From: Nemertoderma westbladi | Taxonomy: Eukaryota; Animalia; Xenacoelomorpha | Direction: 5' to 3' | Length of the DNA stretch: 64,000 nt | Assembly: GCA_032718475.1 (NCBI GenBank) | Contig: JAUCBJ010008402.1 | Location: 62,001-126,000 of the forward strand | In this document: positions 6,001 through 64,000 of the stretch, piece by piece | Layout of the letters: each line of letters begins with the position of its first letter | How positions within the stretch are numbered: position 1 is the first letter of the stretch | Made by a program: the position numbers and the translations under genes | The notes under the pieces: model-generated | Told to the model about the DNA's origin: nothing | Databases searched by the model: none | Seen by the model: the letters and a program-made list of their open reading frames with translations, nothing else

Positions 6001-7798
6001 GTGGGTAGAATACCATGGACAACGGTGTCCATACATTGGGAGGCAAGGTGGGTAGAATACCATGGACAACGATATCCATACATTGGGAGACAAGGTGGGT
6101 AGAATACCATGGACAACGATGTCCATACATTGGGAGACAAGGTGGGTAGAATACCATGGACAACGATGTCCATACATTGGGAGACAAGGTGGGTAGAATA
6201 CCATGGACAACGATGTTCATACATTGGGAGACAAGGTGAGTAGAATACCATGGACAACGATGTCCATTGGGAGACAAGGCGGGTAGAATACCATGGACAA
6301 CGATGTCCATACATTGGGAGACAAGGTGGGTAGAATACCATGGACAACGATGTCTATACATAGAGAGACAAGGTGAGTAGAATACCATGGACAACGATGT
6401 CCATACATTGGGAGACAAGGTGGGTAGAATACCATGGACAACGATGTCCATACATTGGGAGACAAGGTGAGTAGAATACCATGGACAACGATGTCCATAC
6501 ATTGGGAGACAAGGTGGGTAGAATACCATGGACAACGATGTCCATACATTGGGAGACAAGGTGAGTAGAATACCATGGACAACGATGTCCTTACATTGGG
6601 AGACAAGGTGGGTAGAATACCATGGACAACGATGTCTATACATAGAGAGACAAGGTGAGTAGAATACCATGGACAACGATGTTCATACATTGGGAGACAA
6701 GGTGGGTAGAATACCATGGACAACGATGTCCATACATTGGGAGACAAGGTGGGTAGAATACCATGGACAACGATGTCCATACATTGGGAGACAAGGTGGG
6801 TAGAATACCATGGACAACGATGTCCATACATTGGGAGACAAGGTGGGTAGAATACCATGGACAACGATGTCTATACATAGAGAGACAAGGTGAGTAGAAT
6901 ACCATGGACAACGATGTCCATACATTGGGAGACAAGGTGAGTAGAATACCATGGACAACGATGTCCATAAATTGGGAGACAAGGTGGGTAGAATAAGAAT
7001 ACCATGGACAACGATGTCCATACATTGGGAGACAAGGTGGGTAGAATACCATGGACAACGATGTCCATACATTGGGAGACAAGGTGGGTAGAATACCATG
7101 GACAACGATGTCCATACATCGGGAGACAAGGTGGGTAGAATACCATGGACAACGATGTCCATACATTGGGAGACAAGGTGAGTAGAATACCATGGACAAC
7201 GATATCCATACATTGGGAGACAAGGTGAGTAGAATACCATGGACAACGATGTCCATAAATTGGGAGACAAGGTGGGTAGAATAAGAATACCATGGACAAC
7301 GATGTCCATACATTGGGAGACAAGGTGGGTAGAATACCATGGACAACGATGTCCATACATTGGGAGACAAGGTGGGTAGAATAAGAATACCATGGACAAC
7401 GATGTCCATACATTGGGAGACAAGGTGGGTAGAATAAGAATACCATGGACAACGATGTCCATACATTGGGAGACAAGGTGGGTAGAATACCATGGACAAC
7501 GATGTCCATACATTGGGAGACAAGGTGGGTAGAATACCATGGACAACGATGTCCATACATCGGGAGACAAGGTGAGTAGAATACCATGGACAACGATGTC
7601 CATACATCGGGAGACAAGGTGGGTAGAATACCATGGAGAACGATGTCCATACATAGGGAGACAAGGTGGGTAGAATACCATGGACAACGATGTCCATACA
7701 TTGGGAGACAAGGTGGGTAGAATACCATGGACAACGATGTCTATACATAGAGAGACAAGGTGAGTAGAATACCATGGACAACGATGTCCATACATTGG
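1..7798. repeat. 47-bp tandem satellite (TACATTGGGAGACAAGGTGGGTAGAATACCATGGACAACGATGTCCA), ~165 units, continues off the left edge
   Basis: 47-bp periodicity read directly, with recurrent variants (TAGAGAGAC, GGTGAGT, TGTTCAT, +6 AGAATA insertion). Explains all minus-strand ORFs at 419-7819. Confidence 0.98.
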
Positions 7799-7840
7799 TA
7801 GATAATAATTACTTACCACTATGGTTTTATCGTTTTTTAG

Positions 7841-8035
7841 GTTTCAGTTTTAGAGAAGCGACTAGCTGATGTTCTAGATGATCAGATCACCAGTAACGGC
7901 AAACATCACAAACTGAGAAGCGAAAATGAGCTACTTATACACAGAATACGTCAACTGGAGGAAGAAATACATGACTCTAGACACAAAACTGAGAAAGATT
8001 TGGAGGAAACACAAAAGAAATATCGCGATTTATTT
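7841..8035 (+). CDS. RAB11FIP3/4: Internal coding exon (195 bp, phase 0/0) of a Rab11-family-interacting protein 3/4 (Nuf-like) gene, coiled-coil region
   Basis: Acceptor cgttttttag at 7831-7840, branch-like CTTAC at 7812-7816, donor GTAAGT at 8036. Translation VSVLEKRLADVLDDQITSNGKHHKLRSENELLIHRIRQLEEEIHDSRHKTEKDLEETQKKYRDLF aligns without gaps to the RAB11FIP3 segment as I recall it (VVFLERRVLELEKD...QHSRLRQENLQLVHRANALEEQLKE...EETRRQKELL). Confidence 0.85.
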
Positions 8036-8054
8036 GTAAGTGATTTATGTAATA

Positions 8055-8118
8055 ATAGAGCATAGAGAATAGAGTATAGAGCATAGATTCTAGAGAATAG
8101 AGTATAGAGCAGAGTATA
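8055..8118. repeat. Degenerate ~7-bp microsatellite (ATAGAGN)n at the intron start
   Basis: atagagc atagaga atagagt atagagc ... seen directly. Confidence 0.7.
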
Positions 8119-8344
8119 TGTTGATGTTGTGTATTAAAACCTATTATCCTAATTGCGTACCGCCTACTGCTGTATGAACTGCCAGACTGCTTGGCGCCAC
8201 TACCCTGGAATAATCCTTGTCGCTCCAATTTTTGCTCAAATTAAAAGTCGCAGCTGAGCTACCGCTTCCGATTCCTTGTCAACCCAATCAAGCTGAGCAT
8301 AGGCCTCGACCATACACTAGGAGCCGTGGGCCAATCGCTAAAGC

Positions 8345-10340
8345 AACGATCACGAATTTATCTGGACCCGAGGCGACGGTTTCGAGTTTATCGGGGTCTG
8401 GGGCGACGATCACGAAATTATCTGGACCCGAGCCAAAGGTTTCGAGTTTACCTGGTTCTGTGGACATGATCTCGAGTTTATCGGGACTGGAGGCGACGGT
8501 TTCGAGTTTACCTGGATCTGGGGACATGATCTCGAGTTTATCGGGACTGGAGGCGACGGTTTCGAGTTTACCTGGATCTGGGGACATGATCGCGAGTTTA
8601 TCGGGACTGGAGGCGACGGTTTCGAGTTTACCTGGATCTGGGGACATGATATCGAGTTTATCGGGACCGAAGGCGACGGTTTCGAGTTTACCTGGTTCTG
8701 GAGCCATGATCTCGAGTTTATCGGGACCGAAGGCGACGGTTTCGAGTTTACCTGGTTCTGGAGCCATGATCTCGAGTTTATCGGGACCGAAGGCGACGGT
8801 TTCGAGTTTACCTAGTTCTGGGGCCATGATCTCGAGTTTATCGGGACTGGAGGCGACGGTTTCGAGTTTACCTGGATCTGGGGACATGATATCGAGTTTA
8901 TCGGGACCGAAGGCGACGGTTTCGAGTTTACCTGGTTCTGGGGCCATGATCTCGAGTTTATCGGGACCGAAGGCGACGGTTTCGAGTTTACCTGGTTCTG
9001 GAGCCATGATCTCGAGTTTATCGGGACCGAAGGCGACGGTTTCGAGTTTACCTAGTTCTGGGGCCATGATCTCGAGTTTATCGGGACTGGAGGCGACGGT
9101 TTCGAGTTTACCTGGATCTGGGGACATGATATCGAGTTTATCGGGACCGAAGGCGACGGTTTCGAGTTTACCTGGTTCTGGGGCCATGATCTCGAGTTTA
9201 TCGGGACCGAAGGCGACGGTTTCGAGTTTACCTAGTTCTGGGGCCATGATCTCGAGTTTATCGGGACTGGAGGCGACAGTTTCGAGTTTAGCTGGATCTG
9301 GGGACATGATATCGAGTTTATCGGGACCGAAGGCGACGGTTTCGAGTTTACCTGGTTCTGGGGCCATGATCTCGAGTTTATCGGGACCGAAGGCGACGGT
9401 TTCGAGTTTACCTAGTTCTGGGGCCATGATCTCGAGTTTATCGGGACTGGAGGCGACGGTTTCGAATTTACCTGGATCTGGGGACATGATCTCGAGTTTA
9501 TCGGGACCAAAGGCGACGGTTTCGAGTTTACCTAGATCAGGGGACATGATCTCGAGTTTATCGGGACCGAAGGTGACGGTTTCGAGTTTACCTAGATCAG
9601 GGGACATGATCTCGAGTTTATCGGGACCGAAGGTGACGGTTTCGAGTTTACCTAGATCAGGGGACATGATCTCGAGTTTATCGGGACCGAAGGCGACGGT
9701 TTCGAGTCTACCTGGTTCTGGGGCCATGATCTCGAGTTTATCAGAACCGAAGGCGACGGTTTCGAGTTTACCTGGTTCTTTGGCAATGATCTCGAGTTTA
9801 TCAGAACCGAAGGCGACGGTTTCGAGTTTACCTGGTTCTGGGGCAATGATCTCGAGTTTATCGGGACCGAAGGCGACGGTTTCGAGTTTACCTGGTTCTG
9901 GGGCAATGATCTCGAGTTTATCGGGACTGGAGCAGACGGTTTCGAGTTTACCTGGATCTGGGGCCATGATCTCAAGTTTATCGGGGCAGAAGGTGATGGT
10001 TACGAGTTCACATGGATCTGGGGCCATGATTACGAATTTACTTGGATCTGGGACCACAATCTCGAGCTTATCTGGATCTGGGACTATGATCACGAGCTTA
10101 CCTGGATCTGGGTCCACGATCTCGATCTTAGCTGGATCTGGGGCGACGATCTCGAGCTCACCTGGGTCTGGGGCAACGATCTCGAGTTTATCGGGACTAG
10201 AGGTGACGGTTTCGAGATCTCCTGGATCTGGGGCGACAGTTTCGAGTTTACTTGGATCTGGGGCGTCGATCTCGAAATTACCTGGATCTGGGGCGACGAT
10301 CTCGAGCTCACCTGGGTCTGGGGCAACGAACTCAGATTTA
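8345..10340. repeat. 60-bp (2 x 30-bp) CpG-rich minisatellite, open on both strands
   Basis: Unit GATCTCGAGTTTATCGGGACCGAAGGCGACGGTTTCGAGTTTACCTGGTTCTGGGGCCAT; ORFs 8217-10481 (+) and 8288-10447 (-). Confidence 0.95.
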
Positions 10341-11589
10341 TCTGCATCCGGACCAATGATAATTTCGAGTTGGAATTTAATAGGCAAGACCAGTACACCC
10401 CAATACATAAGGGAGTGTGGGGGGGCTGATAACAACCCTGTGTGCATGACTCAATGCACCACAATCGGATTTGGGGTTTGAAGATATTCACAGTTCAATT
10501 TGTAAATCATATGATATAAGTAAGGCAGATATTCAAGTGCCAATTTGTGTTAATGACAATGTACCAGTCTCACATACAATGTTTCACAATTCTACAGTAC
10601 ACACAAATACTTGTACTTACCTCACTGCAGGACTGTGTTCCAACCCCCCTTCCCACCCCATATATGTTACCACATCTGACCCAAAAACTATTATAAATTA
10701 TGTTCCAGTGTAGTGTGTCTTGTTAATACCTCACAACCTACTGATCCACGATTTCAAAACACAGTCTATAACGTCCCCATCCCATGCGGTGATACTATCA
10801 TGCACACAACCAGTAGATCTCACCATTGTCAATCAACATATACTCCCCCCCCCCACACTCACTCTACTGTTAATAATGTCACCGACATACGACCAACCCA
10901 ATCAACCGCTACCCCACCTAATAAGTACAACAATACGCTGGTAACTAACAGGCCTGCTAGCACAGTGGACCCACCAGAGGGGAGTATTGACGAAGTGTTG
11001 CCCGAGCTGCAAACCACAGACAGGCCCATAAACAAAGTCTTGGTAGAAGACCTTACATCTGACGGTCGCTGGATAGTTAGAGATAAACCCACAATTGGAG
11101 AGCTCACGTACCCTGTAAACAAGACCTTAAAACCCATTGATACTGTGACTCCTGCTATGAATTCTAGGAAATGTCCCACAAAAGAGGCACCATTAAAAAG
11201 AAAGGGAGGGAAAAATAATAACAAAGTCCCAGTTAATAAGGAAGCCCTCAATAAGGGACTGATCAGACACTACAGTAAGGGAAAACCTGCCTCCACAACT
11301 CCAACACCTGTCATAACAATGCAGACTCTACTAGCGACATAGAAATTATCGAATCACCAATTCCACTAACCAATGCAACAGATGTCTCCCATCTTCCCCA
11401 GTCAATTGGCACACCATGTCTCACCCAACCCTCATCAACTGTTCGAGAGGTACCGGATTCTGAAATTGTCGAGTGGCTGGACGAATTTATTAATGTTTTT
11501 CCAGACTCCCACAATAGCTATAATGAACAGGATATAATCAATGCTGCAACACGTAAGCCAAGAACAACAACTGGCCTTACACTACTTAA

Positions 11590-12202
11590 ACCCTATGACC
11601 CTGACTGGGCATACTTTGAGCCTGGTGTAAACCTCAGCACCACAATCATCGACTCTTTTTTATCTATTCTCTCGCTAAATTTTGCCAACATGTCCTGCAT
11701 AGACTCAGCCTTATGCTTAAAACTCCGACAGGACAAGTACGACATTGCCAGTGCAATTTCATATATCACTATAAGATGAGATATTGCAACCAAACCCATA
11801 ATAGTGTTTCCAGACTGCCATTCTTCCCATTTTCTTCTACATGTAGCGAATCTTAATGAACGATCAGTATACACCCTCTGCAGCATTAGCCCCATACAGA
11901 AAGTTAGTGAAATCTCTGTTAAAATATGTAACCTGCTCAATACTATTGACAGAATCTTGGGAAGGGAGGACCACCCATGGACTGCCAGAAAGAACACTTC
12001 TCCCTTCCCCAGCCAAAGCAACAACCATGACTGCGGAGGATTTTTATGTCTTTATGCACTTGCCTTAGCCACTGGTAACCTAACATTGAGACCTGAACAC
12101 ACCTGCAGTTCTCGTCTTCGTTCGTGGCTTAAAAAATGCATAACTGACATCAAAATACCAGATTTAACACTCAACACCAACTCCATTAATTATCCAAAGT
12201 GA
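11590..12202 (+). pseudogene. Ulp1/SENP-like (peptidase C48) cysteine protease domain with one in-frame stop
   Basis: One frame reads DWAYFEPGVNLSTTIIDSFLSIL...TIR*DIATKPIIVFPDCHSSHFLLHVANLNERSVYTLCSI...FPSQSNNHDCGGFLCLYA, matching the C48 pattern P-x(4-5)-H-W/F...Q-x-N-x-x-D-C-G-x-F. His, Gln and Cys are present; the Asp position (His+17) reads Cys. Confidence 0.8.
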
Positions 12203-12361
12203 ATACACCTCAACAAAACAAAGGCTGTGGACAGGAAAGTCTCCCTTTGACCCAAAGAATATGGCACATATTACCGAACTCTCTCAAATACCCAGGAAAG
12301 AAGCAATTCGCATAATATCTCAATCTACTCAGGAAGTCAGCATGTTAACTCGGACAATCTC

Positions 12362-13943
12362 ATGCAAGATGCAAGGAAACTTATGTCACCTGTCCAATGT
12401 GTAACACTACAGCTTAAACCACGTACATCCCTTTATGAGTTAGCCGTTGACATTCTAGAACTGCTGAGATGCATACATGAACAAATTCTTACAGAACCTT
12501 GTCGTAAACGGCTGCGCAAAGCCACACCATCAGGTGAAGGGGATATCACTCTGGCAGGACTCAGTAATGATATGAACTCAGCCGTAGCTGCAATACAGAC
12601 CAGACTATGTCTTCTTGAGAATGACATTGACGCACTCAAGCAGCAGAACTCTAACCTGCAAGAAGAGCTTAATCTTGAACGCAACACCAGGACAGTTATA
12701 GAGCACCATTTAAATGCTCTTACTGGGAAAATAAACAACTCACATCACCAACCAACAACAACTAACAGCACTGCCATAGTATGCAATAGCAAAGACCAAA
12801 ACAACACTGACTCAGGGAGAATAATTTCCAGCATTGTGAACCCTACACAGGTGCAGGACAATCAGGATACAGCACCAACGAAATTGCAAACCAAAGAAGA
12901 AGTTCAACAGGATTTGGTTGTAATAGATCATTGGCCCACTCCCACTTGCAAAGAAATTGACCAACCCCCTGTAACTTTACACACAGATAAATCACAATGG
13001 AACAGGGTTGTGGAGAAACCTGTCAATCAACCCAGGAATAGAATTAGACACCATACACAACTCCATACCAACCACCCTAAGTAACAAATTTGCTCCCTTG
13101 AGAGAAAATTGTGGTCCTCTTTATAATACTCATCTCCAACAGCACCCAACCAAGAAGCTTCCATCCAATTATCAACCCCAAATGTTGCCTTCTCACAACT
13201 CCATGAACAGAGTCCAGAAGCAACTAACCCAAAAGCACCAAGTGCATTATGGACCGAATAACCAATCTGTTCCCCACACACCCTCTTATTAAGACAACAG
13301 AGCAAATGATCTGTATCCACCAACTACAAACTATACAAAGCATAATCTCACCAACCACCATACAAAGGAAGCTCCCAGAGACAGAAGTTACGTAGAAAGG
13401 TTCCAATTGAAGGCCAACTACTTCAATGACCATTCCTTCAAACAAACTTCTAATACACACCCTTCGCCAGTACCCTTTAAGCTTAAATATCAAAGCAACA
13501 ATGAAACCTGTAATTACACCAGAGCCCCCAACCATATTCATACCTCAAACATCAAAACCTGTAACAGTACATCCATTTTTCTTACTAACATTAACCCAAT
13601 TATGTTTGAAGAGGATGTAGAAGCTTTCCTGCTTGAAAAACACATAAATGTATATCAAATCACAACAAAACGCAACCAGTTCACCCATTCTAAGATCATG
13701 CGCATCACAGTTGATAGTAAGGATGTAAACAAACTAACACATAACTTATTTTGGCCTCAAGACAACCATTGTTATACATGGACACAGGACAGACAGAACT
13801 ACTGGGAGAGGAACAATGCTTACCTTATAGGTAGAGAAGTAAACAACTGGAGACACAAACTAGAACGTCAACAGTGGGACCGAATTCTGAACAATCGCAC
13901 CCATTACTCTTGCCCCATACAGAGATCTAATCATTATCTTTAG
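12362..13943 (+). pseudogene. LINE ORF1-like remnant: coiled coil, low-complexity linker, RRM-like domain
   Basis: IQTRLCLLENDIDALKQQNSNLQEELNLER heptads; SIFLTNINP...EDVEAFL...MRITVDSKDVNKL...FWPQ is typical of CR1/L2-group ORF1 C-termini. Frameshifted. Confidence 0.7.
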
Positions 13944-14049
13944 CAGTGAGTTGTATACTAGCACACAACCAACGACGAAACAGGCTGGATGGAACATGGG
14001 CCAAAAGGAAGCTGTGACAGTAAAATCTGACATCGATGGAGGAACCACT

Positions 14050-15404
14050 AGCTGTAACCCCCCTTCCATCATAATAGGGTCACTTAACACTCATGGCTTC
14101 TTATCGAACTCTACCTACATCGCTAACCTGCTCAAGTCATGTAATGTGTTGGGAATACAGGAGCACTGGCTCGATGAATTAGAATGTCGAACCATCCTTC
14201 AGAATCTAGATGACCATTTTCACTGTGTTTTCTCAATCAGCAATCTAATGCAGAATCCATACTGCAAACGAGGAGCTGGGGGTACTGCAGGAAAAAATTG
14301 TTTTCAAGTTGGAATGAATTAGGGTCTGGGGATGACATCTGTGGAATACAGGCACAACTACAGAATGCAGAATCGCCACTCATACTCCTATCATGTTATG
14401 CACCAGATGCAAGCAAGGATAGAACTATTTACCACGATTTCCTTGGCAGACTCGAATCAATCCTAAGCCAACATCCTCTATCCTCCCCAATTATAATGTC
14501 GGATACAAATGCTGACCTTGGTAGACTCCAGGGAGAGAGATTTAATCATGATGTAGCTAATGAAAGAGGAAAATTTCTTAATGACTTCCTTAACAAAAAC
14601 AATTTGACAGCAGTGGATACACTCAGCAATTTCACAGGACCCTGTATAACGTATAGGGGTCATGGAGAATCTTATATCGACCATATTCTAATGGCAACTC
14701 GGGACACCAACTTAATTACCAGTGGTCAAGTCTTTCATGAGGACCCAGTAAACAACTATTCGGATCATACACCCCTTGGTACTACCGCTACAGGTCTACG
14801 CGAAATGACTGAAGTACTACATAAAAAGGCAAACTCGGTCTCCCTATTAATCGAACACAGCAAAACAAATTGGATTTGGATTGGCAAACAATTCAGGAAA
14901 AGTAAAACACATGAACCATCTGTCATCAACATCAATGGAACTCCGATCAAAAGAAGCTCCCACCTCACCTTTCTTGGCTACAAACTGTATGGATCTATAA
15001 CATCTAGTCAGATCCTCAATGAAACTACACAATCAATAGCGATTTTGTCCCAAACATTCCACTCTAAAGGATGGACTACACGTTGGATTTGCAGTAAGAC
15101 TGTCTTTAAGATTTGGTCAACAATGTCAGTCCCTGTAATCACTTATCAACTAAAAATGAACATTGGTGCTCTCAACGATACAGATCTCGGAAAACTGGAC
15201 GCCTACTACAGGAAAACTCTACTACGCGGTTTGCTCCATCTGGGATCATACATTAGCAACACAACTCTCTACTGTTTATCTCGGAGCCTCCCTATCTCTA
15301 CCGAGGCGGAACGCCTCGGTAGTCCAGTGTCTTGGCAACTTGATGCGGGTTTTCAGTTGTCCAAATCCCACTCTGCAACTCGGATTCCGGTTGGCCTTAC
15401 ATAG
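14050..15404 (+). pseudogene. LINE ORF2 remnant: APE endonuclease fused in frame to the post-catalytic part of RT
   Basis: APE motifs GSLNTHG, LGIQEHWL, SCYAP, IMSDTNAD, YIDHI, SDHTPL, followed directly by TTATGLREM...LLIEHSKT...PIKRSSHLTFLGY. No YADD-type motif. Frameshift near 14300. Confidence 0.85.
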
Positions 15405-16504
15405 TAATGCCCACCCTAACAGTTCACACAGGGGCATCTCTTGTGGTTATGTAAAAGCAGCTATGACTTTTCCAATACCACGTCTTTTTTCGCTAGCCTC
15501 GTTCAAGTATGATACTAAACATATAATTGACCGAATCAATAATGGGTGCCCTACCAATAAAGACAGGTTAACCTCGAACTTCGTAGAGAATTGCTTCCAA
15601 CTGAAATCAACATCCCTGGACAAAAAGAGATCGATAATAATAGATTACTTGTGTGCTATTATATAACGACTCGTACATACGACTTACATTTCCTAACACT
15701 GACTTCCTTTTCTGACAACACAACGACATCAATGCCAATGTACCATCATTCCCATCCTTGTACAGTACTACCTTGTATATATGTAACGTTTAGTTTACCT
15801 GCACTGAATACGCTACCTATTATCTGTAATTCTGGAACAACCTGTGACTACAAACTATTATATGGATCCTATTTCTGAATGTTTTAATGTTTATTGTTTT
15901 TACTGATTAATTTTATTGTGCAGTGCCATAAATTTCATTTAACATAATATGCAACATGTTTTTATTTGTTAATATAATTGTCGGCTCGACTGACATACCC
16001 GATGAAATGAAATGAAATGAAATGTATCGTTGACTTGCGTGTAAGGATTTGATTACTAATTGTATCGTTGAGTGCGTGTAAGTAAGCAGTACCCGCCATG
16101 ATTGGGTTAATTTATCTACATCGGTTGAGCATTTTCCTGTACTTATGAACATTGAACTTAATAATCAAATACAATAGGATTATAAATCACCATCTTATTA
16201 CAGTTGTTGTAGATTTGCCCATTGTTTTAGTATTACATAATATAATTAAAAAAATTGCAACTATTTATATCTTAAAAACAAAACCACTTATATAATCCTA
16301 CCGGTATACTGTATTTACAGAATAGCTAGCCAAGTTTTCAGTTCAAAGCAATTAATTTATTTTAATTAACATTCGCTTTCGGGTAGATACGATATTGACT
16401 AAAAGTTATTTCCACACCAATTATCGTAAATCCCATTCCCATAACCCTTTACTTTATGCATTGTGTTTATTAGTTCGTATTATTGAATGTGAATTCCAAT
16501 GACC

Positions 16505-52727: not shown

Positions 52728-53459
52728 TCAGAATCTCCCAGCATCCCCTACTGTGTTTTCCTGGACTCTGGGATTCCAAATATTCCCTAACAACGGATTC
52801 CTTCCATGAGATTATCGATTTATCCTCTTTATATAAAATATTATTAGTAGTAGTAGTAGCTCGTAGTGTCTCATCTCACAATAATTTGGTACCAACATAT
52901 TGTCCTTTGGAAGGGAGTACGGTATTTTTCGTAGAATATTTATTCCGCTTTCACGAAATAATATTTTCATATCGTAAATATATTACCGGTATACAGTTTT
53001 TTTAGGACGACTGGTGCAATTTTATTCATTCCTAATGTACAGCAGTTATGGCTGATATTTTTTTATTAACCCTAATATAATTTTTATAAAGTATTTGTTA
53101 TAAATTCTTTACTCTCTGTATTTTGTAATTTACTTTTATCCAAATTCATCAACTTTTAACAGATTTCCCCAATTTAATAGTTAAAATAATTGTAACGTAA
53201 TGTAAACAACAGATATGTACACCTTCAACAGTGTTATATTACCGGTGAGTGGAAACAATATCAAAACTTGGTCCTTTCCTACTGCTATATCAGTTTTTAT
53301 TTTCATGCCTCTTGTGAAGCTGTCCGAAGCGGTAAGCATTAATTATCAAACAACTTTATTTATGTAATACAATTTGTTTTATCGTAGTTGTTTGCAGTAA
53401 TTGTTTTAATGTTTTTGGTTGTTTTTCGAATAACTTGATGTACCGCTTTGACTTTTACA

Positions 53460-53610
53460 GGTACCGGTTAACTATATGTTAATTGTTAATATGTCAGTAC
53501 CGGTTAAATATGTGTTAACCTATGTTAACCAGTACAGTACCGATTAAATATATGTTAACATGTACAGTACCGATTAAATATGTTAACATGTATGTATAGT
53601 ACCGGTTACT
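53460..53610. repeat. Short degenerate minisatellite (GTACCG(G/A)TTAAATAT...GTTAAC), about 5 copies
   Basis: Repeated GTACCG...TTAA...ATGTTAAC units seen directly. Confidence 0.65.
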
Positions 53611-53639
53611 ACTACAATCGTCATGCTGCATTGCAGCTG

Positions 53640-54295
53640 CGTTATATATATATATTACATATATAAGAATTGGATATATATTATTCACAACTCCCTATCA
53701 CTCATGACATTTGCTAGATCATTCGCATCTTCAAGGCCAGTGTCCTTTAAGATGCGTCTCAAGAAAGTCATGGGCTGTCCACCATGCTTATTCACTCCAT
53801 GAGGCTGCCAAAGTACAAGATTATGCACTGGCTAGTCCTCACGGCGAAAGCAATGACCTGCAAAGCGGAGATGATTTTGTTTTAGTGTCAAGCTTGGGGG
53901 AACCAATGAGACACCTCCAATGTTATATAGTGTCTGGTTGGAGATGTGTGCATTGTACTTGACACAATGAACCCGGCGTAGCATTCTTGTGAATGTGCCA
54001 TCCAGAGATTTGGTGTCTTCAGCAGTTAGAGCCCAGCATGGACTCCCGTAGAGGGGTACTGGAACTACTGCTGCTCTAAATAATCGGACCTTAAGTTTCC
54101 GATTAATTCTCGGTGACTTCCAAATCCTGGAAAGCCTATTCAAGGCTGCCCATGCCTTTCCCTTACGTATTCGAAGGTCCTCACCTGACTTCCGGATCCA
54201 TGATCCCAGGTAACAGAAGTCGTCCACATGCTCAAGCATACCATCCTTTGAGCTTATGCTCATCCGATCAGAGACTTGCTCGAGGACTTTCAAAG
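53640..54295 (-). mobile_element. RTE/RTEX-like LINE 3' fragment
   Basis: LEHVDDFCYLGSWI...RKGKAWAALNRLSRIWKS...LYGSPCW...LRFAGHCFR, then WQPHG...KDTGL...MSDRELW in a shifted frame; (TA)n-like tail near 53645. Confidence 0.9.
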
Positions 54296-54484
54296 ATAAC
54301 TGTCAAAATTTTGGAGCGGAGGCGACTTTGTTCTAGTGTCAAGCTTGGGGAACCAATGAGACACCTCCAATGTTATATAGTGTCTGGTTGGAGATGTGTG
54401 CATTGTGCTTCACATAATGAACCGGGCGCAGCAGGGGTACCGATATGACATAATATGTCAACCTGTACAGTACCAGATTAATTA

Positions 54485-54849
54485 GCTCTAAGGATGGTGT
54501 TGTTGAGCATGTGGACGACTTCTGTTACCACCTGGGATCATGGATCCGGAAGTCAGGTGAGGACCTTCGAATACGTAAGGGAAAGGCATGGGCAGCCTTG
54601 AATAGGCTTTCCCGGATTTGGAAGTCACCGAGAATTAATCGGAAACTTAAGGTCCGATTATTTAGAGCAGCAGTAGTTCCAGTACTCCTCTATGGGAGTC
54701 CATGCTGGGCTCTAACTGCTGAGGACAACAAATCTCTGGATGACACATTTACAAGAATGCTACGCCGGGTTCACTTTATCAAGTACAATGAACACATCTC
54801 CAACCAAACACGATATACCATTGGAGGTGTCTCAATGGTTCCCTCAAGA
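54485..54849 (+). mobile_element. Second, inverted copy of the same RTE-like fragment
   Basis: Near-identical reverse complement of ~53890-54253; ORF 54511-54993. Confidence 0.9.
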
Positions 54850-54889
54850 TTGGGACTTAATGGGGGAGAGGGGGGGGGGGGGGGGGGGG

Positions 54890-55495
54890 GGGAGTTGACT
54901 ATTAAACTAAAAATGTTTGTTCCCTTATTTAGAAGACTTCGTTTTATCCAAATTTATTGGCATTTGGCACACATGTATAGAATAGGTGGATAAAAAATTT
55001 CAAAAAAAATTTTCGAAATTTTTAATTTTTGCCAAATTTACATACTTTCTGCAAAAAAAATTTTAAATGCAAAGGCTCTTAGAGGGATGGCCATCAAGTG
55101 CTCAAAATTTCATCATTTCTGCAGAATGGCTAAATCGACCTTATGAACAGAATTTTGATAAATGCTTATGTTCAAAAATTATTTAAAAAAAATAAACGAT
55201 TTTCTTGCCATATTTCAGCTATAACAATGAAAATAAAAAAAAGTGGTCATAGGAGGTGTTAAGCATCAATCACCCAGTCTTCATTCGAGCCAAATTTCAC
55301 ACAAATTGGTTCATTTTTAGAAGTTGCATTTTGAAATTTAAAATTTGCATTCTTCAGAAAACGCATTTAAAGTTTATGCTTAGGGTAATTCTGTCCTATG
55401 AAATGTTAGAATGCACTCAACCGCGCTTAAAATATTGTTGCAAGGGTTTTCCTTGTGATTGTGATCCTTGCAAGGTGATTTCATTTCTAAAGTCA
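54890..55495. mobile_element. Possible non-autonomous DNA transposon remnant
   Basis: AT-rich with AAAAAAATTTT quasi-palindromes and GCCAAATTT(C/A)CA motifs typical of invertebrate MITE-like elements; no TIR pair or TSD identified. Confidence 0.3.
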
Positions 55496-55786
55496 GTTTA
55501 CTCGTCTGACAAAGTCATATCTGTCTGTCATTGCTGTCTGTCTGTCCGTCACAACATAACCGACTACTGGAAATGAGATCCTTCCAGGCTTCCCGATTCT
55601 CCATAGTGGTCGCAATTTCGTTTCTCCCAAGTTCAGTATCCCTTTCAAGTTAATCTATATATGTTATGGCCGGTCGTCCACGACTACGCTTTCCATGAGT
55701 TGGTTGCCAGAGAAGTAGATCTGGTATGACCTTGTCTTTACTTCGCCAGCAGTGCCCACTGATTCTTAATTGCGTTCACGGAGGGT

Positions 55787-56588
55787 ATATAATTATATGA
55801 TGTTAGATAACCACGACTTTAGAGGGATTGTGATATTAATATGAAAACAATAAAATAGGACATGGGGTCTTATTCCCTCAAATACTACCTAGCATTTAGG
55901 GCCACTTGGGCCACTGTTAGTACTCAGGCACTAAGGCCCATCAAAAAACAAAATACCAAATCGATTTTAGTGCTACATAAACCAACCCAACTACCACATG
56001 AAAAATTACACCAAACCATACATTAACTACAGGTTCCGGTAAGTATTGCACGAAATAGGCTATCCCATAAATTACGAAAAATATAGGACATTTTGTCCGC
56101 CGAAAAGGTAAGTCTATGTAATAAATTTTATAAAAATAAAAGGGTTTCGGAGATTTAAACACTGAACCCTGGGATTCGTGGTTCTCCTCATCAGCAGTGT
56201 GCCACGAACCCCACCCCTACCCTAACAAAACTGCACCACTAAAATAAGACAATGACCAATAAATTAAAAATCCTACCGTACCACCAAACAGAGTTGAAAC
56301 CACCCACCCCCAATGTATGTTACCATCAGCCCCAAATGCATAAACATGATTCCCCACTGAAGGCAACCTACCCCAATTAGCACCTACCGGTATGATCAGA
56401 TAAATGATCAGATTTTTAAACAAAATTGCGCGATGTCAGAAAATGCCCCTGTAAATATATAATTATATGATGTTAGACAACCACGACTTTAGAGACTGAG
56501 AGAGACTTTAGAGACCAAGTGGCCCTAAATGCTAGGTAGTATCTGAGGGAATAAAATCCCATGTCCTATTTTATTGTTTTCATATTAA
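55787..56588 (-). mobile_element. Non-coding ribozyme-bearing insertion (Penelope pLTR-derived or retrozyme-like)
   Basis: TSD TTCACG(G/A)AGGGT at 55775-55786 and 56589-56600; 38-bp direct repeat at 55787-55824 and 56457-56494; 75-bp inverted copy at 55835-55909 and 56515-56589; hammerhead core inside. Confidence 0.8.
56141..56212 (-). ncRNA. Hammerhead ribozyme, non-circularly permuted
   Basis: Minus strand: GGGGUUCGUGG C ACACUG CUGAUGA GGAGA A CCACGAAUCCC AGGG UU CAGUGU UUAAA UCUCC GAAA CCCU. Full core, stems I (6 bp), II (5 bp), III (A-U plus 4 bp), GUU cleavage triplet, extra 11-bp helix. Confidence 0.85.
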
Positions 56589-57249
56589 TTCACGAAGGGT
56601 GGTTGATACAGGTGGTATTGTACCATAAAGCTGGGCGTTTGTGATGTGTTGTCTCCAGCTGATGTTTAGGGCTGCCCTTAGTAGTCTTGTGTAGCAACCA
56701 TCAATTCGTTGTTCAAGTGATTTAGTCAGTGTCCAGGTCTCACCCCCGTATAAAAATACACTTTCCACTGTGGCTCGAAAGAACTTAGTCTTCAGGTGCC
56801 TGGAGAGATCTGATTTCCAGATGGTATCCATTTTTGATAGAGCTACCCAAGCCTTTTCTTTCCTAACTTCTATGTCCTTTTTGCTACTCTCTGTCCATGA
56901 TCCTAAGTACTGGAAGTCGTCGACCTTCCTTAGTTGATTATTATCAATGGTTGTCAAGTTTCCATCAACATTAAAGCAAAGGTCATGAATTCGGTCTTGG
57001 TAGCATTTATATGCAAGCCAACCTCCTTAGCAGCCCTCTCCACTTTATTTAGTAGAAGCTGTGCATCTGCTAGCGTATTAGAGAGGAGGGCGATGTCATC
57101 CACAAAGTCTGTGACTGTAGTTGCCAGATATCTACTACTTCTGCGTTCTTGAAGTGTGAATCCCAGATCTTCACCCTTTGTGGCCATCCTCATTGCGTAA
57201 TCCAGCACAATTACAAATAGTAATATGTATGAGCATATGTATGTGAGCA

Positions 57250-57480
57250 TAGATAGATAGATAGATTTATTTATACATTATATGAAAACAATAACAAATA
57301 CACCAAACAATGTACCGGTATAAAGGTATTGTCCAACATAACATATAGGATTACCCCTAAAGCTTTGCAGCTTATTTCCAAGGGGGTCCTTTATGTTACT
57401 TGGTTACAAATACAATATTACACTACGCTAACCTAAAACCAATATAAAACATAATTACACTATGTACATGTACAACTTTA
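57250..57480 (-). mobile_element. 3' end of a Crack/L2-type LINE
   Basis: Minus-strand stem-loop AGGACCCCCTTGGAAATAAGCTGCAAAGCTTTAGGGGTAATCCT (57347-57390), AATAAA, then a (TCTA)n tail at 57250-57266. Confidence 0.6.
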
Positions 57481-57518
57481 CCGAGAGCGTGAGTGACAAT
57501 ATCCGACTCAATGATAAA

Positions 57519-58132
57519 TGTAAGCGGATTCAATTCCCTTGCATTATCCACCCGAAAATGGGACCAGTGGCATTTTACCAATATAGTTGGCGATACGATA
57601 TTACCAATAATAATCTCGCCTCATAACCAACTCAGGGGGGGGGGGGGGGGGCAATACAGGCCCTAAAGCCACAGAGAGAGGTCAAACCACCTGACAGGGA
57701 GAACACAGCTAGTCAAGGCTAGCGGCAGGGGGTAACACTTACAGGGAGTGCCAAAGTGACAATTAGTATATAAGCCAATAGCGGGCAGGGGAGCACGTGG
57801 GGAAAGATAGGAAAGCATCCATTGGGTAGCAAAAGGCCGAAGTAGAGTAGAGGTGAAACCAATATCTATGTGTATCAATCATATAGTTATCCTGATTACT
57901 GGTTTACCGGTCAGTTCATTAATCACAGAGTTGCAGACCGGTTATAGTTTTAACCATCACTTTATAACTGCTGTTGTAATTCTGTATTGCAATTTCAATC
58001 ATATACTGTTATACATTCTGTGCTATTATCATTGGAACATTAACATCGAGAGACACAAACTCTGTTATTTTCCCGACGGCCTTTGGCCAAAGATATAAGT
58101 TCAGCAGCCAAGCAGGAAGTGACGCGTATAAC
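57519..58132 (+). mobile_element. Probable 5' LTR of the BEL/Pao element (limits uncertain)
   Basis: Candidate start TGTAAGCG, TATATAA at ~57768, end GACGCGTATAAC(C), located just upstream of gag. The partner LTR is not in the window. Confidence 0.4.
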
Positions 58133-59579
58133 CTAACCCAGTCGGGATCCTTGAACTCAATCCTACTATCCAGCTTACTAAAACTATCCAGCTTACAACA
58201 GACTGTGACCGCAACCAGACTCAAGAAAGATGAATGAAGAACACCGAATGCCCCGAGAATCAGAGGGAGAAAGAACGCCGCTGCGGACCCCGGACTACAC
58301 CAACCAAACGATCCGAGAGGCCGCGAAGAGATGGTACCGGCCAGCCACCCTGGATTCGCCACCAAGGGACGAACCGAATGCCCAAGCGGAGGGCGGCCGA
58401 CAACAACGAGGAGGGAAAGACAACGACGAGTCGACGCGCGACGATGACGGCAGTTGGAGTACCGAAGTTGCCGGCCAGCCACAGGCCGAGGGTGACGGAT
58501 GGCCCACCGGAACGGCGACGGTGGGGCCGCCGGTATGACGCCGGATGAGGAGGGAAGGTAGAGTCAACGAGGAGGACATCGGGACGAGTGATCGCCTACG
58601 ATGGGCGTACAACGCCACAAAGAAACTACTGAAAGATGCTAAGGAGGGGAGAAAGGTAGACAAGCCTAAACTATACCAGAGGCTAGGTGAGTCGAATAAA
58701 CATTTCCGTTACTTAGTCCGTTTTGGACAGGGGGAACTGGTGAGTGAGAGAGCATGGGGGGTCGCCACAGAACTGTTTAAATTGTGGCGGTCCGAGGTAA
58801 TGGAGCCAGATGTAGTGTACATAGGGCCTTACCAAGTGGATGCCAGGGGAATTAAGTTAGTGGGATGGGCGGACCCGCATGACGGCATATCCGAGGTTAA
58901 CCCCGAGGATTCGGTGTCGTCGGTTAGTAAGAACCCCACTAAACGGGGGAAATTAGTAGGACAGAGAGGCGACGGGAGTCCTTCGCGACCGATATGTCCA
59001 CTACATCCTGCGAAAGCAGGAAGGGTATTAGAGATAGATCTGGCGTGTCAACTAGACATTGTGGCGCTGGATCAAAAGGAACTGGAGAAGCAGTTAGATG
59101 AGGGAACTGCACTATTAGAGAGGGAGAGAGAATTAGCGAGAGAGTGTAAAGAGAGGGCCGAGAGGGTGGCGAGAAACTATAGGGAGTGGGAGGAGAGAGA
59201 GATGAGTGAGCATAAAGAGTGCAAGGAGCGGGAGGCAAGAGTAGAAAACGAGCGCAAGATGCGGGAGATTGAGAGAATTGAGCAGGAGGCGAGAGTGGAA
59301 AACGAGTGCAAGATGCGGGAGGTTGAGAGAATTGAAAGGGAAGCGAACAAGCGCAAAGAGCGAGAAGCGAGAGAGGTAGTGAGGGTAGAGAGAGAAGCGA
59401 ACGAGCGTAGAGAGCGGGAGGCGAGGGAGACAGAATTGGCCAACCAAAGTATGAGGGAGGATAGAGAGAGAGTGTGACCGTATGGGCGGGGGGGGGGGGG
59501 GGGTAATAATAATAATACGAGTTAATTAGAGGGAGTTAATATTAATAGTACCGTGATAGACAACCCTAATCAAACCTTT

Positions 59580-61628
59580 TGTTAAACAAGCACGATCACG
59601 AGCTGGTCCTTACTATTGAACAATGCAGCATTTGCAAGCAACAAAAAACACAAAGTTGCTTCTTACCGCTAGATGGCACTAACCAGGCCATCCGCTAATA
59701 TGTTTTACTATTATTTACTATATGGCTCCACTAAATCGCTTGCTCCTTTCTCTGTTGATCGCTCAACAGAGAGCTAACTGTTTGAGCCACGCGGGAATAA
59801 CCAAAACAAAAAACCCGAAATCGGCTCCCTGAGCTACTTAAAACGAGTGTTGGTGGCCTATCACTCGGAGTTCACTTATCGCAAAACACTGGAATTCACT
59901 GGCAGAACACGTTGAATGTGAGAATATTTTAATAATCTATGGGGACAGATCTGTTTAATTTCCTAGATATCGAAACTTGGCCTTCGGCTGGTTTTAGACC
60001 AGCAAACTTACTACTGCTGTACTGTATACTGGACACTGCTGTCAGCCTGTTGCCCCGCTATTTTCAAATAACCGCCTAGCATGAATAGTCTACAGTATTC
60101 TAAACAATCACTTAAAACTACTCTCCGCTATGCTGCGTACAAATTCTTATTTTATTTTATATCGCTAAATTAATTAGTCATAAATACAAATTTGCGTACT
60201 AATTACTAGATATTCCAGAATACGTACTTCTAATTTATTATGTACTGGGTTATACTAGCAACAGCCTAAATACTGTATTATTTTGACCTAACTAACAATT
60301 AATAAGCATAAACTAAGAAATGGAAATCAATCAAGGGAAACAGCGCCTATCTAAGCATTCACATTTAAGAATCAGGCACTCTTTAGCAATACAACACAAA
60401 TAGCATAGCAATAAGCTAATAGTACGGCAGATAGCGCTAACTACACCAGTCAGCTAGTGCACTAAATACCCGTACGTTAGTACATCAGTATAACAGTATT
60501 AGTCATTCAGTCAGTCAGTGTAAGAACCACAGGCCACCCAAAGCCACACATAGGACTCCTGACTAAACCCAAATTCTGCCCCCTAATACTACAAAGTAGA
60601 GACAAAAATCTGAATCATCAGCCACCTAATACTGTAACAGCGGCTGGTCCCCAGTCCTCAACTGACTAGCCCCGACCGCAACGGTGCCCACCGCCAGCGT
60701 CGCCCCGCTTTGGATCCTCTGCACTCCCTTCCGTCGCTTCCCCCCGGTGCGCCCGCCGCACCTACCGTTACTTTAGCCCTCCATGTTAGAACAAATAGCT
60801 ACCGTATCGGCACATGCATTCACAAAACAGTCTGACAATCTAAAGGGAATCCCATAGGATTATTGCATCTCAATTACATAGAAATCAGTAATTAAATGTA
60901 GAAATCATAGTTCAAGATTGTAATTAGCAGTAACCATCATCAAATTTACGTAATTTAAGAAAAAACAGCAAAGAATTTAAATCAGAAATAACACAGAAGC
61001 AGAATAACAGCATTAAGGAATTACACAGAATATTGCAAGAAAAATAAGGACATAAGGTAAAACACATACCGGAACACGGCCAATTTATAGATCATGAAAT
61101 AGGGATGACGCAATAATCGTCTGATTGGTCCAGCAAGCCACGCCACCATTAGACCAACCTGGAACAGCTGGGCCAATAAGTAAGCCGGATTGTGCTCCTT
61201 GTCCCTCTAAATCGCAAATTATTACCATATATGGTAATGAATTGTGTCCCGGTGGGCTTATAGGTTGCTGGCCATAACATTAATTTCGAGATTATTAAAG
61301 TACATTAAGCACAATTCGATATAAAGCCAATTTAAAGGGAAATATAAATGGGAATTAATACAAATACATAATCAATTCGATCAATATTAATAAATGCCAA
61401 GCTTGTATTAAGGTTTTATAGGAACTTGCTACCGTAAATGTTATTTATTAAGGTTTTATTATAAAATTACGTACGCAAAACTACATACTATACAAAATGG
61501 ATGAGATATATGAACTTGGATATTTTATTGTCCCTATCTAATTACGGCTGTACATAATTATGACTTATCTAAATATTTCATACTGTATAATGGGCTGATA
61601 GTAGTACACAGCGTCATATATCGTAACA
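59580..61628 (-). mobile_element. 2049-bp solo LTR nested in the BEL gag
   Basis: Termini TGTTA...TAACA; 5-bp TSD CCTTT at 59575-59579 and 61629-61633. Excision restores the gag frame NPNQTF|LSGNNILPGSNNPNLNVQ. Confidence 0.88.
61084..61128 (-). promoter_or_regulatory. Candidate solo-LTR promoter: CCAAT, CRE-like TGACGCAA, TATAAA
   Basis: Minus-strand CCAAT (61124-61128), TGACGCAA (61106-61113) and TATAAA (61084-61089) in promoter order. Confidence 0.5.
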
Positions 61629-64000
61629 CCTTTCTTTCAGGAAATAATATTTTACCCGGTAGTAATAACCCTAATTTAAATGTGCAAAGTAATCTAAATA
61701 GTAACCCTAATTTAAATGTGCAAAATAATCTAAATAATAACCCTTATTCTGAGAAAAATAATTTAAATAATAATTTAGGTAACAATAATACGTTAAATAA
61801 CCCTGAAGAAATTAACCAAAATAATATCATTAGTAATAGTGTAACGAATCAGGGCAAAATTAATAACGGTGCAATTAATACAAATGCAGGGGGAACAAGC
61901 GAGCCGGCCAACGAGAGCCTGCAAGGCCACGCAGTTGCTCAGGGAGTAGCGGGGGTGAGTCAACCCAACGAGAGCCTGCAACGCCACGCAGTTCCACAGG
62001 GAGAAGCGGGGGTGAATAAACCCAGGGAGGGTAGAGATAATGCGTCGACTAGAGGGGGGCGTAGGGGCGAAGTAAGAGGTGACGGATGGGGGGGGGGGGG
62101 GGGTGGGGGCTACGGGCACCCCACCACGAGAGATTAGTGGCGAGAGGGGGGGGGGGCAGAGAATGTCCCACAATCATCAACAGGAAATGCGCGCGGCGAG
62201 TTAAGTGAGCCATGGCACCCAATGGCGGGCGACAGGGGGGGGGGGGGGGGGGCAGAGAATGTCCCACAAGCGTCGGCGGACAATGCGCGCGGCGAGTTAG
62301 GTGGACCATGCGGCACCCGACGACAGAGAATAGTAGGGGGATTGCGAATATCCCCAGCACCGTCCAACCAGGGCAGAGAGAGAGACGTTGGCGCCGTGAG
62401 CGGGCGAGCGAGAAGACGTCGAGCCCAGTCGGAAGACGGAAGAGGAACAGTGGAGTTTATCCGGGAGGTCGAAGCGAGATCTCACGAGGAGGAACACTGC
62501 ACTGAAGCGAGACGAAGTGAGGAGAATCGAAGGAGCGTTGCTACGAGCAACGGAGAGGAAGGACGGACAGTGAACCGTCAGTAGTCGAGATGGAGTCAGA
62601 GAGCCGGTGGGGTCGTACTCCGGGAGATTGCCGTCGCCCCGGAGAATCACAACCTGGCGAGATATACCACACACCGGGAGAGGGGTACAGGATGTACCGG
62701 TGCGAGGATGAAGACAGGAGAGGGGATCGAAGAGAAACTTCCCGACGGAACGTAGCTGCCGATCGAGAATATGGTAGTCGCGGGGAGGACTTCTTGGAAT
62801 ATTCGAGAAGATTAAACTTCGGTCCGGAAGGACACAGGCAGACTGCAGGACATTCTGTAGGCCTTACTGCACATACTATAGGCCATGCTGGGAGAGATAG
62901 TGTAGGCGATAGGGTAGCGCAGACAACGGGATTAGACCCGGAAGTCGCGGCATACATACCTGTAGGTAGGCAAGAAGTGGATAGGCCTATACCGGTACCT
63001 GCATGCACACCAGTATGACTATAACATGCAGGGATTTAATATATACCCAGGGGAGGGGGGAGCTATTGTCGATAGTGCATGGGCCCTAACATGATAACAT
63101 CAACCCCAGTACCAAATATAACACCGGTGGGGGGGGGGGGGGGGGGGGGGGCAGGGTGACATTCCCCCATTGCAATATCAGCAATACACTCAACCAAGAA
63201 CAAAATCCCCAAACCACTCAGACCCAAATAAGTCGTGTGACACGGAGATATGGAGGGGACCGTTACCCCCAATGATATATCCTACACAAAGAAAGTCGAC
63301 AGGCCCAACGGGCGAACCGCACCCAACAGCAAGGGAGTCTGCACCACAACTATCGAGCGCGCTAGAAGTACAAGCGATGGGAATGGCAACACTCATCGAC
63401 ATGCTAAAGACCAGAATCGAGCTACCACCAGTGGAGCCGTTCAAATTCGATGGTAGTAAGCCGGAGGAATACCTGCAATTCTGGGGTATGTACAGTAACG
63501 AAATATTAACGAAGAACCTGACGCAGGCGGAGTGCCAAAAATACTTACAAGTTTACACAGGGGGGCCAGCATATGACATCGTAAGGCAGTACCAAGGTAT
63601 CGAAGGTGGATTCACGACTGCATGGTGGGCCCTGGACAGGGAATTCGGGCATCCTGCGAAGATCATCCAACAAACCTTAAGGGGAATAACATCAGGCGGA
63701 CTACAGGATAACCCTGTCAGCATCAAGACCTTCGCAAATAAAGTCGAAAAGGCGCTGATAGTGCTAAAGACCCTTGATGCACCTTACGAACTCAACGCAT
63801 CGAATAACATCACTACAATAGCGCAGGCACTACCGATCTGGCTGAGGAACAAGTGGAGAAAGATTGCCTTCTCCACCAGATAGAAGAAGGGTGCGGAGCC
63901 AGGGCTAGAGGAGATGTCAAACTTCCTTAACTATGAGGCGGAGCTGATTACAGACCCACTCTACAGCGAGGATAGTTTGGGGAGGGCACCGAAAGCTGAA

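Follow-up and report, generated by a model that had tools for sequence, protein, structure and literature searches.

A type-CSG hammerhead motif in a multicopy, probably Penelope-like insertion of animal-type genomic DNA

The hammerhead ribozyme can be split into three blocks, C, G and S, and six orders of these blocks have been named (Eckert, Friedrich, Weinberg and Weinberg 2023, PMC10085705). Type CSG is known in print from five sequences, two of them unique (CSG-1 and CSG-2), all from soil DNA contigs, and these two cleave slowly at the expected site (0.004 and 0.026 per min, respectively). Support for the type consists of two similar sequences with modest covariation and no known biological setting, and its authors regarded the evidence for biological relevance as weaker than that for type SGC (PMC10085705). 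A literature search, which covered few subscription papers, turned up no account of type CSG outside Eckert et al. and nothing that links it to retroelements. An earlier note on the DNA studied here had mentioned reports of such ribozymes with Penelope-like elements; this does not fit PMC10085705, which has its CSG examples from soil DNA, names Penelope only in the title of one reference and draws no link between CSG and Penelope-like elements.

Insertions of Penelope-like elements, including Naiads, are marked by an inverted 5'-truncated copy, partial tandems and a tail of 30 to 40 bp (Craig, Yushenova, Rodriguez and Arkhipova 2021, PMC8557442). Naiads are often 5'-truncated and found in partial tandems, and many of them prefer (TA)n sites. 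They are stated to lack canonical hammerheads, and that they thrive without hammerheads was the basis for suggesting that ribozymes may just parasitise Penelope-like elements. Eight Naiad families are labelled 'HHR_half_core', with the halves of the core 35 to 50 nt apart (PMC8557442). In PAc, a Poseidon element of Anolis carolinensis, two nearby internal start sites for reverse transcription bound the tail and both DNA strands are extended; its ribozyme could be mutated without loss of insertion in vitro, and RNA-seq gave no reads with an end at the cut (Frangieh et al. 2024, PMC11167929). An origin from Penelope-like elements has been put forward for the non-LTR retrozymes of metazoans (Cervera and de la Pena 2020, PMC7229834; Li, Clavereau and Pollet 2026, bioRxiv 10.64898/2026.07.22.740005), the 2026 preprint considering type I hammerheads.

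The hammerhead motif described here comprises 72 nt of the minus strand of the window, that is, of the whole 64-kb stretch of DNA that was analysed (Table 1). All the segments proposed in the earlier note were found at their coordinates, with an intact core (CUGAUGA, 56194-56188, and GAAA, 56148-56145) and every stem paired. Pairing in stems I, II and III is Watson-Crick throughout (6/6, 5/5 and 4/4, plus the pair A15.1-U16.1), and the 11 pairs of P4 include one G-U. The conserved core nucleotides of type CSG (CUGAnGA, GAAA, UH and G10.1-C11.1) are all present, as are the pairs G10.1-C11.1 and C1.1-G2.1. The cleavage triplet is GUU (56167-56165); the cut is predicted between 56165 and 56164 from hammerhead numbering and the mapped sites of CSG-1 and CSG-2 (PMC10085705), and this is where the earlier note had placed it. 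Read 5' to 3', the blocks run C, S, G with crossing stems, as in type CSG. Since helices cross (I with II, I with III, II with III, P4 with I and P4 with II), the strand order is not a circular permutation, which bears out what had been claimed. A hammerhead of type I, II or III was ruled out by the crossing stems together with the lack of an Rfam match, and a type II hammerhead with a long insertion was rejected because its stems would have to nest.

Table 1. Features of the motif, the insertion and its flanks (positions are those of the window)
Feature	Position	Strand	Evidence or remark
Type-CSG hammerhead ribozyme motif with P4	56141..56212	-	sequence, descriptor, crossing helices; architecture as in Supplementary Fig. 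10 of PMC10085705
G-rich upstream flank able to pair with block G (possible inactive fold)	56213..56224	-	minimum-energy folds, pseudoknot-free
P4, 5' strand	56202..56212	-	11/11 pairs with 56171-56181; pair probability 1.0
Block C: stem I strand (56200-56195), CUGAUGA (56194-56188), stem II strand (56187-56183)	56183..56200	-	
P4, 3' strand, no linker to stem III	56171..56181	-	
Block S: stem III strand, GUU, predicted cut 56165/56164, stem I strand	56159..56170	-	cut inferred
5-nt linker UUAAA tying distal ends of stems I and II	56154..56158	-	
Block G: stem II strand, GAAA, stem III strand	56141..56153	-	
Multicopy non-coding insertion, 802 bp (670-bp unit plus terminal extras)	55787..56588	-	longest ATG-started frame 54 codons
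Target-site duplication, upstream copy, 12 bp	56589..56600	-	empty-site joints, loose ends of host repeat
Target-site duplication, downstream copy, 12 bp, 1 mismatch	55775..55786	-	
Inverted 75-bp copy of 55835-55909, 5' end of insertion	56515..56589	+	96% complementary
20-bp stutter before 5' tail copy	56495..56514	-	
39-bp terminal repeat ('tail'), 5' copy	56456..56494	-	97% identical to 55786-55824, spacing 670
3' tail: AC-rich 10-bp spacer and terminal repeat, TA-rich ending	55787..55834	-	
Hairpin, 13-bp, interrupted, just upstream of inverted-repeat arm	55910..55940	-	fold only, no control
Host non-LTR retrotransposon (LINE) fragment upstream of insertion; resumes below 55775	56601..57277	-	

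Comparison with published permuted hammerheads, as the earlier note had suggested, gave a layout that agrees with those of CSG-1 and CSG-2. In all three, P4 is followed by 1 nt, a 6-bp stem I, the core, a 5-bp stem II, 1 nt and P4 again, with stem III, UH and a 5-nt linker after P4 (PMC10085705). The linker UUAAA is identical in CSG-2 and has four of its five letters in common with CSG-1. In contrast, P4 is longer in the window (11 bp versus 7 to 8 bp), the joint between P4 and stem III is shorter (0 versus 2 nt) and the cleavage triplet is GUU rather than GUC. A hand count against CSG-1 gave 13 of 22 comparable pairs that differ on both sides (stem I 4/6, stem II 2/5, stem III 3/4, P4 4/7) and no broken pair. 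Covariation of the helices was thus seen in this hand comparison, and also in a by-eye reading of seven Naiad ends (below); both the Naiad and the CSG-1/CSG-2 comparisons are visual readings that use neither an alignment nor a covariance model. The topology of the window motif is therefore type CSG, already published, and the motif is a new member and not a new class. The earlier note had offered 'a new member or topology rather than a new class': the new member stands, while a new topology, like a new ribozyme class, has to be rejected because type CSG is in print, and the 'extra strut' helix is no novelty, P4 being drawn in Supplementary Fig. 10 of PMC10085705.

Both strands of the 64-kb window were searched with a permissive descriptor of the order C-S-G, in which the three stems need at least 4, 3 and 3 pairs, G-U pairs count and P4 is optional; it matched once. 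The same descriptor matched nothing in 20 Mb of random sequence generated by an order-3 Markov model that had been trained on window positions 52728-64000 and 7901-16500. An analytic estimate put chance occurrence of the motif at about 6e-8 per window without P4 and 3e-11 with it. The second CUGAUGA of the window (60615-60621) has no stems around the core. Rfam gave no match at gathering score in the whole window, and in 55700-56700 none of its hammerhead families appeared even when E was allowed to reach 10, so standard models miss the motif, as had been anticipated. The published RNAMotif pattern would miss it as well, because stems II and III are 12 nt apart and the pattern allows at most 10 (PMC10085705).

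It is extremely improbable that the motif is a chance arrangement or an assembly artefact. Folded without pseudoknots, the motif has no more than modest stability (z -2.0; 8 of 200 shuffles equally good), as a chance arrangement might. However, the descriptor found nothing in the control sequence, the layout agrees with validated CSG ribozymes (PMC10085705) and an independent contig (record 28) covers the whole motif with at least 31 letters beyond each side. Chance and artefact are refuted for practical purposes, and the motif is very probably an evolved CSG hammerhead.

In the pseudoknot-free fold of the 72 nt, P4 (probability 1.0) and stem III (0.8 to 1.0) dominate, which leaves stems I and II to form as pseudoknots. 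The pair probability of P4 stayed at 1.0 when 0 to 150 nt of upstream flank were added; the G-rich stretch at about 56213-56224 captured block G in three of six minimum-energy folds with flank, pseudoknots not being modelled. P4 and stem III would form first as nested hairpins. Stems I and II would follow as pseudoknots, when blocks S and G pair with the 20-nt loop that P4 closes. P4 and the 5-nt linker, both present in the sequence, may tie together the distal ends of stems I and II, as the earlier note had it, and replace the usual contact of loop I with loop II. In hammerhead chemistry G12 acts as the base and the 2'-OH of G8 as the acid, and the products carry a 2',3'-cyclic phosphate and a 5'-OH. 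GUU is a weaker hammerhead site than GUC. A short stem III (4 bp), the zero-length linker to P4 and the flank competing for block G also count against cleavage. Judged from its sequence, this copy probably cleaves in cis, and by analogy with CSG-1 and CSG-2 the rate is likely to be slow.

It is a good deal less probable that cleavage takes place chiefly in a dimer, where one RNA contributes the C block closed by P4 and the other contributes blocks S and G, or chiefly with help from a protein. Such cleavage would fit the zero-length joint of P4 and stem III, which bridges positions that lie far apart in the crystal structure according to Eckert et al. (PMC10085705), and the Anolis ribozyme needed protein (PMC11167929). 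On the other hand, no partner had to be added for CSG-1 and CSG-2, in which the joint is 2 nt long, to cleave during transcription (PMC10085705), and the three core stems are of normal length here. Minimal hammerheads of Penelope-like elements reportedly cleave as dimers, which was counted for the dimer.

The ribozyme lies 354 nt before the end of a non-coding insertion in a LINE fragment. On the ribozyme strand the insertion begins with the inverted 75-bp copy, the 20-bp stutter and the 39-bp repeat, followed by the body with the ribozyme and, after the body, the 75-bp segment, the 10-bp AC-rich spacer and the second 39-bp repeat, 670 bp from the first. It is about 1.06 units long and has one copy of the ribozyme. 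The inverted 5' copy, the 39-bp tail with partial tandem and the 12-bp target duplication are hallmarks of Penelope-like elements, in which the target duplication varies in length, and the insertion probably belongs with these. Its non-TA site counts against a Naiad-type mobilisation, given the preference of many Naiads for (TA)n. No coding remnant was found in the 670-bp unit (longest ATG-started frame 54 codons), and a coding role was rejected on the length of this frame. A Pfam scan of 48 window frames (15 + 33, outside satellite and tandem-repeat arrays) gave no GIY-YIG domain, and neither the insertion nor these frames hold an autonomous Naiad ORF (N-terminal GIY-YIG, CxC linker, C-terminal RT). 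The circular 670-nt fold was slightly more stable than shuffled sequences (2 of 40 equally good). The hairpin at 55910-55940 on the minus strand is a candidate binding signal for a partner protein.

The host LINE was recognized by RVT_1 (E 4.9e-9 at 56957-57277) and is 42% identical to a fragment at 53835-54302. LINE endonucleases also make target duplications. The insertion lies within a LINE fragment and has a 12-bp target duplication, so the element might have been mobilised by another retroelement, such as the host LINE, with the CSG hammerhead picked up or evolved independently; hammerheads evolve readily, as discussed in PMC10085705. Such an origin seems improbable, since the 3' end of the insertion carries neither poly(A) nor a tail of short repeats and does not resemble the host LINE. 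The inverted copy, for its part, breaks off 48 nt before the 3' end is reached, in keeping with two internal starts (PMC11167929).

More generally, the window resembles animal genomic DNA in having two long satellites, LINE fragments and other transposon remnants. The satellites occupy 1-7802 (45- to 47-bp unit, higher-order period 141) and 16507-52727 (36 kb, 46-bp unit, about 779 copies, strong strand skew). A 60-bp tandem repeat (8214-10481, about 33 copies) leaves frames open on both strands, over 755 codons (plus) and 720 codons (minus). A LINE 3' fragment at 53881-54860 is folded back, with 331-bp arms that are 94% complementary and an 87-bp direct repeat. Other fragments match Ulp1 protease (PF02902; 11780-12202), a LINE-type endonuclease (PF14529; 14214-15404) and DUF1759 (PF03564; 63122-63883), the last a domain typical of BEL/Pao elements.

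The insertion is multicopy and was found in contigs of four public DNA runs of one organism (three studies), four of the six listed runs containing part of the stretch as DNA. Contig joints in these runs show the host LINE without the insertion, i.e. an empty site. One contig (record 29) bridges the tail-body junction (56287-56489), so this junction is not private to the assembly; in run X2 a deep contig spans about 56409-56475, as inferred from the distances to its ends. The 670-nt unit is probably a natural one. Summed contig depth over the ribozyme bins, which indicates multiple copies but is not a copy number, was about 14,900 to 49,800 in runs X1 to X3 and only some 380 in X4; the depth decreases in the direction of the 5' end. 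In run X4, a cluster of A-to-G differences at 55872-55948 could be due to a subfamily or to inverted-repeat editing.

Among the differences listed (40 of 72), 33 were inside the insertion and none in the 72-nt motif, although its length would predict about 3 (a chance of about 0.05 by hand arithmetic; 12 of 17 gap rows were listed). One contig spanning 55949-56249 has 11 differences and four gaps, and the 10 differences listed are all outside the motif. This sparing of the motif is weak support for conservation. In two contigs from two studies (records 2 and 9) the match breaks off at 56161, a position that lies 3 nt into the predicted 3' product. The stops are a weak sign of what is expected if cut RNA was copied to its 5' end; they probably represent one locus, and could alternatively stem from a diverged family.

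If the ribozyme is real, the insertion might still be the 5'-truncated 3' end of an autonomous Penelope-like element (a Naiad) and not a complete 670-nt non-autonomous unit. We consider this unlikely, yet it is the strongest of the alternatives. Truncation at the 5' end and partial tandems are frequent in Naiads (PMC8557442), the 3' UTRs of Naiads are long and the ribozyme of Naiad_Parc is about 500 nt from the end, compared with 354 nt here. In addition, a deep 1210-nt contig of run X4 (record 27) matches 55842-55978 and has 1067 unmatched letters; this candidate for a longer or autonomous relative implies that longer relatives exist. Against truncation, the unit has no coding remnant, and record 29 and the deep X2 contig suggest a common junction rather than a one-off truncation.

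Consensus 3' ends of Naiads were inspected by eye in the supplement of PMC8557442, and seven of the 12 viewed read as CSG with P4. The set holds 54 Naiads, of which 12 named ends were viewed and the other 42 were covered by 8-letter word searches, blind across line breaks; three further core matches (supplement parts 8, 17 and 19), unnamed or unclear, were left out of this count. Six of the seven are from nematodes and one from a spider. By eye, their helices P4/I/II/III have 10/6/5/11 pairs in Naiad_Parc, at least 11/6/5/10 in 1_Nbra, 12/5/5/5 in 2_Nbra, 9/5/4/5 in 3_Nbra, at least 13/6/5/10 in Hcon, at least 13/5/5/8 in Naiad_Hpol and 10/6/5/11 in Naiad_Smim, where stem III contains a single mismatch and the core is followed by an additional U. 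The seven motifs differ in sequence in every helix. Naiad_Parc has almost exactly the spacing of the window motif, including the 1-nt spacers and the 5-nt linker, Naiad_Hpol has the same GUU site and Naiad_Smim the same zero-length joint of P4 and stem III.

In PMC8557442 four of the seven are labelled HHR_half_core and one HHR_core, and two are unmarked; of the HHR_half_core families viewed, four of seven read as CSG. The core halves are 39 nt apart in the window, within the 35 to 50 nt of that label. The ends of Ppac (last 600 nt), 3_Dst, Obim, Ovul and Esco did not read as CSG. Two of these, from octopus (Naiad_Obim and Naiad_Ovul), have the core in the order S-G-C with the 5' strand of stem II apparently upstream, a wiring unlike that of the window, and Naiads may use more than one non-circular permutation. 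These readings show that predicted CSG hammerheads with P4 occur in Naiads. They do not show descent of the window element from a Naiad. A link of type CSG to Penelope-like elements, which the earlier note had given as published, looks real on the evidence gathered here.

Pattern scans of other data yielded 44 loci (0 in viral contigs, then 15 with a looser pattern; 18 in metagenome contigs; 11 in prokaryote genomes), none of which passed the full descriptor as a complete new CSG member. The metagenome scan missed the two published CSG contigs and so does not cover all such data. A possible truncated CSG hammerhead is located at the end of a 1267-bp metagenome contig (L012, 1219-1267, minus strand): it has the core, a 5-bp stem II, a 5-bp stem III, GUC and the linker of CSG-1, but lacks the 5' strands of stem I and P4. 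The sequence after this motif is rich in GT.

The reading we prefer, with a probability of about 0.62, is that a CSG hammerhead is part of a multicopy, protein-less and likely non-autonomous Penelope-like element with a Naiad-type partner, and that the RNA of this element is predicted to cut itself after the GUU ending at 56165. The cut would trim read-through or tandem transcripts to the 670-nt unit; this copy cannot release unit-length RNA alone because only one ribozyme is present. The reverse transcriptase of the partner would start inside the RNA at two nearby sites, one start giving the long copy with tail and the other the short inverted copy. Two internal starts would thus produce a long copy that ends at 55787 and an inverted copy from the equivalent of 55835, 48 nt upstream. 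As no gene for a Naiad or other Penelope-like protein was seen in the window, the partner is proposed from common architecture alone, and on this analogy a Naiad is on balance favoured. A circular RNA intermediate is rather doubtful. In PAc, however, cleavage is dispensable for insertion in vitro (PMC11167929).

More tentatively, and at a little less than even odds, CSG could be the normal ribozyme of a branch of Naiads in nematodes, spiders and this animal, with the soil CSG sequences coming from such elements in small invertebrates. The 670-nt unit would then be a Naiad-dependent retrozyme, cut by a pseudoknotted hammerhead and copied from circular or tandem RNA in a way that leaves the terminal repeat.

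The window copy and the seven Naiad ends would add eight divergent members to type CSG, with pairing kept in four helices, and would give the type a home in animal retroelements. The presence of CSG in Naiads would overturn the statement that Naiads thrive without hammerheads. A working ribozyme kept through complete rewiring would argue for selection on cleavage, and the differing helix and linker lengths of the members would map the geometry tolerated by the rewired fold.

Among known systems, Naiads resemble the window insertion in the inverted 5' copy, the tail of 30 to 40 bp, the partial tandem layout and the TA-rich end (PMC8557442). However, the insertion has no GIY-YIG/RT gene, and the likeness described is one of architecture. 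The start sites and two-strand extension of PAc account for the ends of the insertion (PMC11167929), whereas PAc itself is autonomous, has a C-terminal endonuclease and carries a minimal hammerhead of canonical order that needs protein and is dispensable for insertion in vitro. Metazoan non-LTR retrozymes (PMC7229834; 10.64898/2026.07.22.740005) have in common with the insertion a non-coding, low-GC, hammerhead-bearing repeat and a target duplication of more than 4 bp. They have type I hammerheads, tandem units of 150 to 450 bp and circular RNAs, compared with CSG, a 670-bp unit and about 1.06 units in the window. The insertion is not a non-LTR retrozyme with a type I hammerhead in each unit, as its ribozyme is type CSG; as to tandems, this copy has one ribozyme and the common tail-body junction is compatible with tandems elsewhere. 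CSG-1 and CSG-2 come from soil DNA contigs without a known host element (PMC10085705), whereas the motif described here is in a multicopy animal-type genomic insertion. What is new is this setting in an animal genome, likely a non-autonomous Penelope-like element, for which matching ribozymes can be read in published Naiads of nematodes and a spider.
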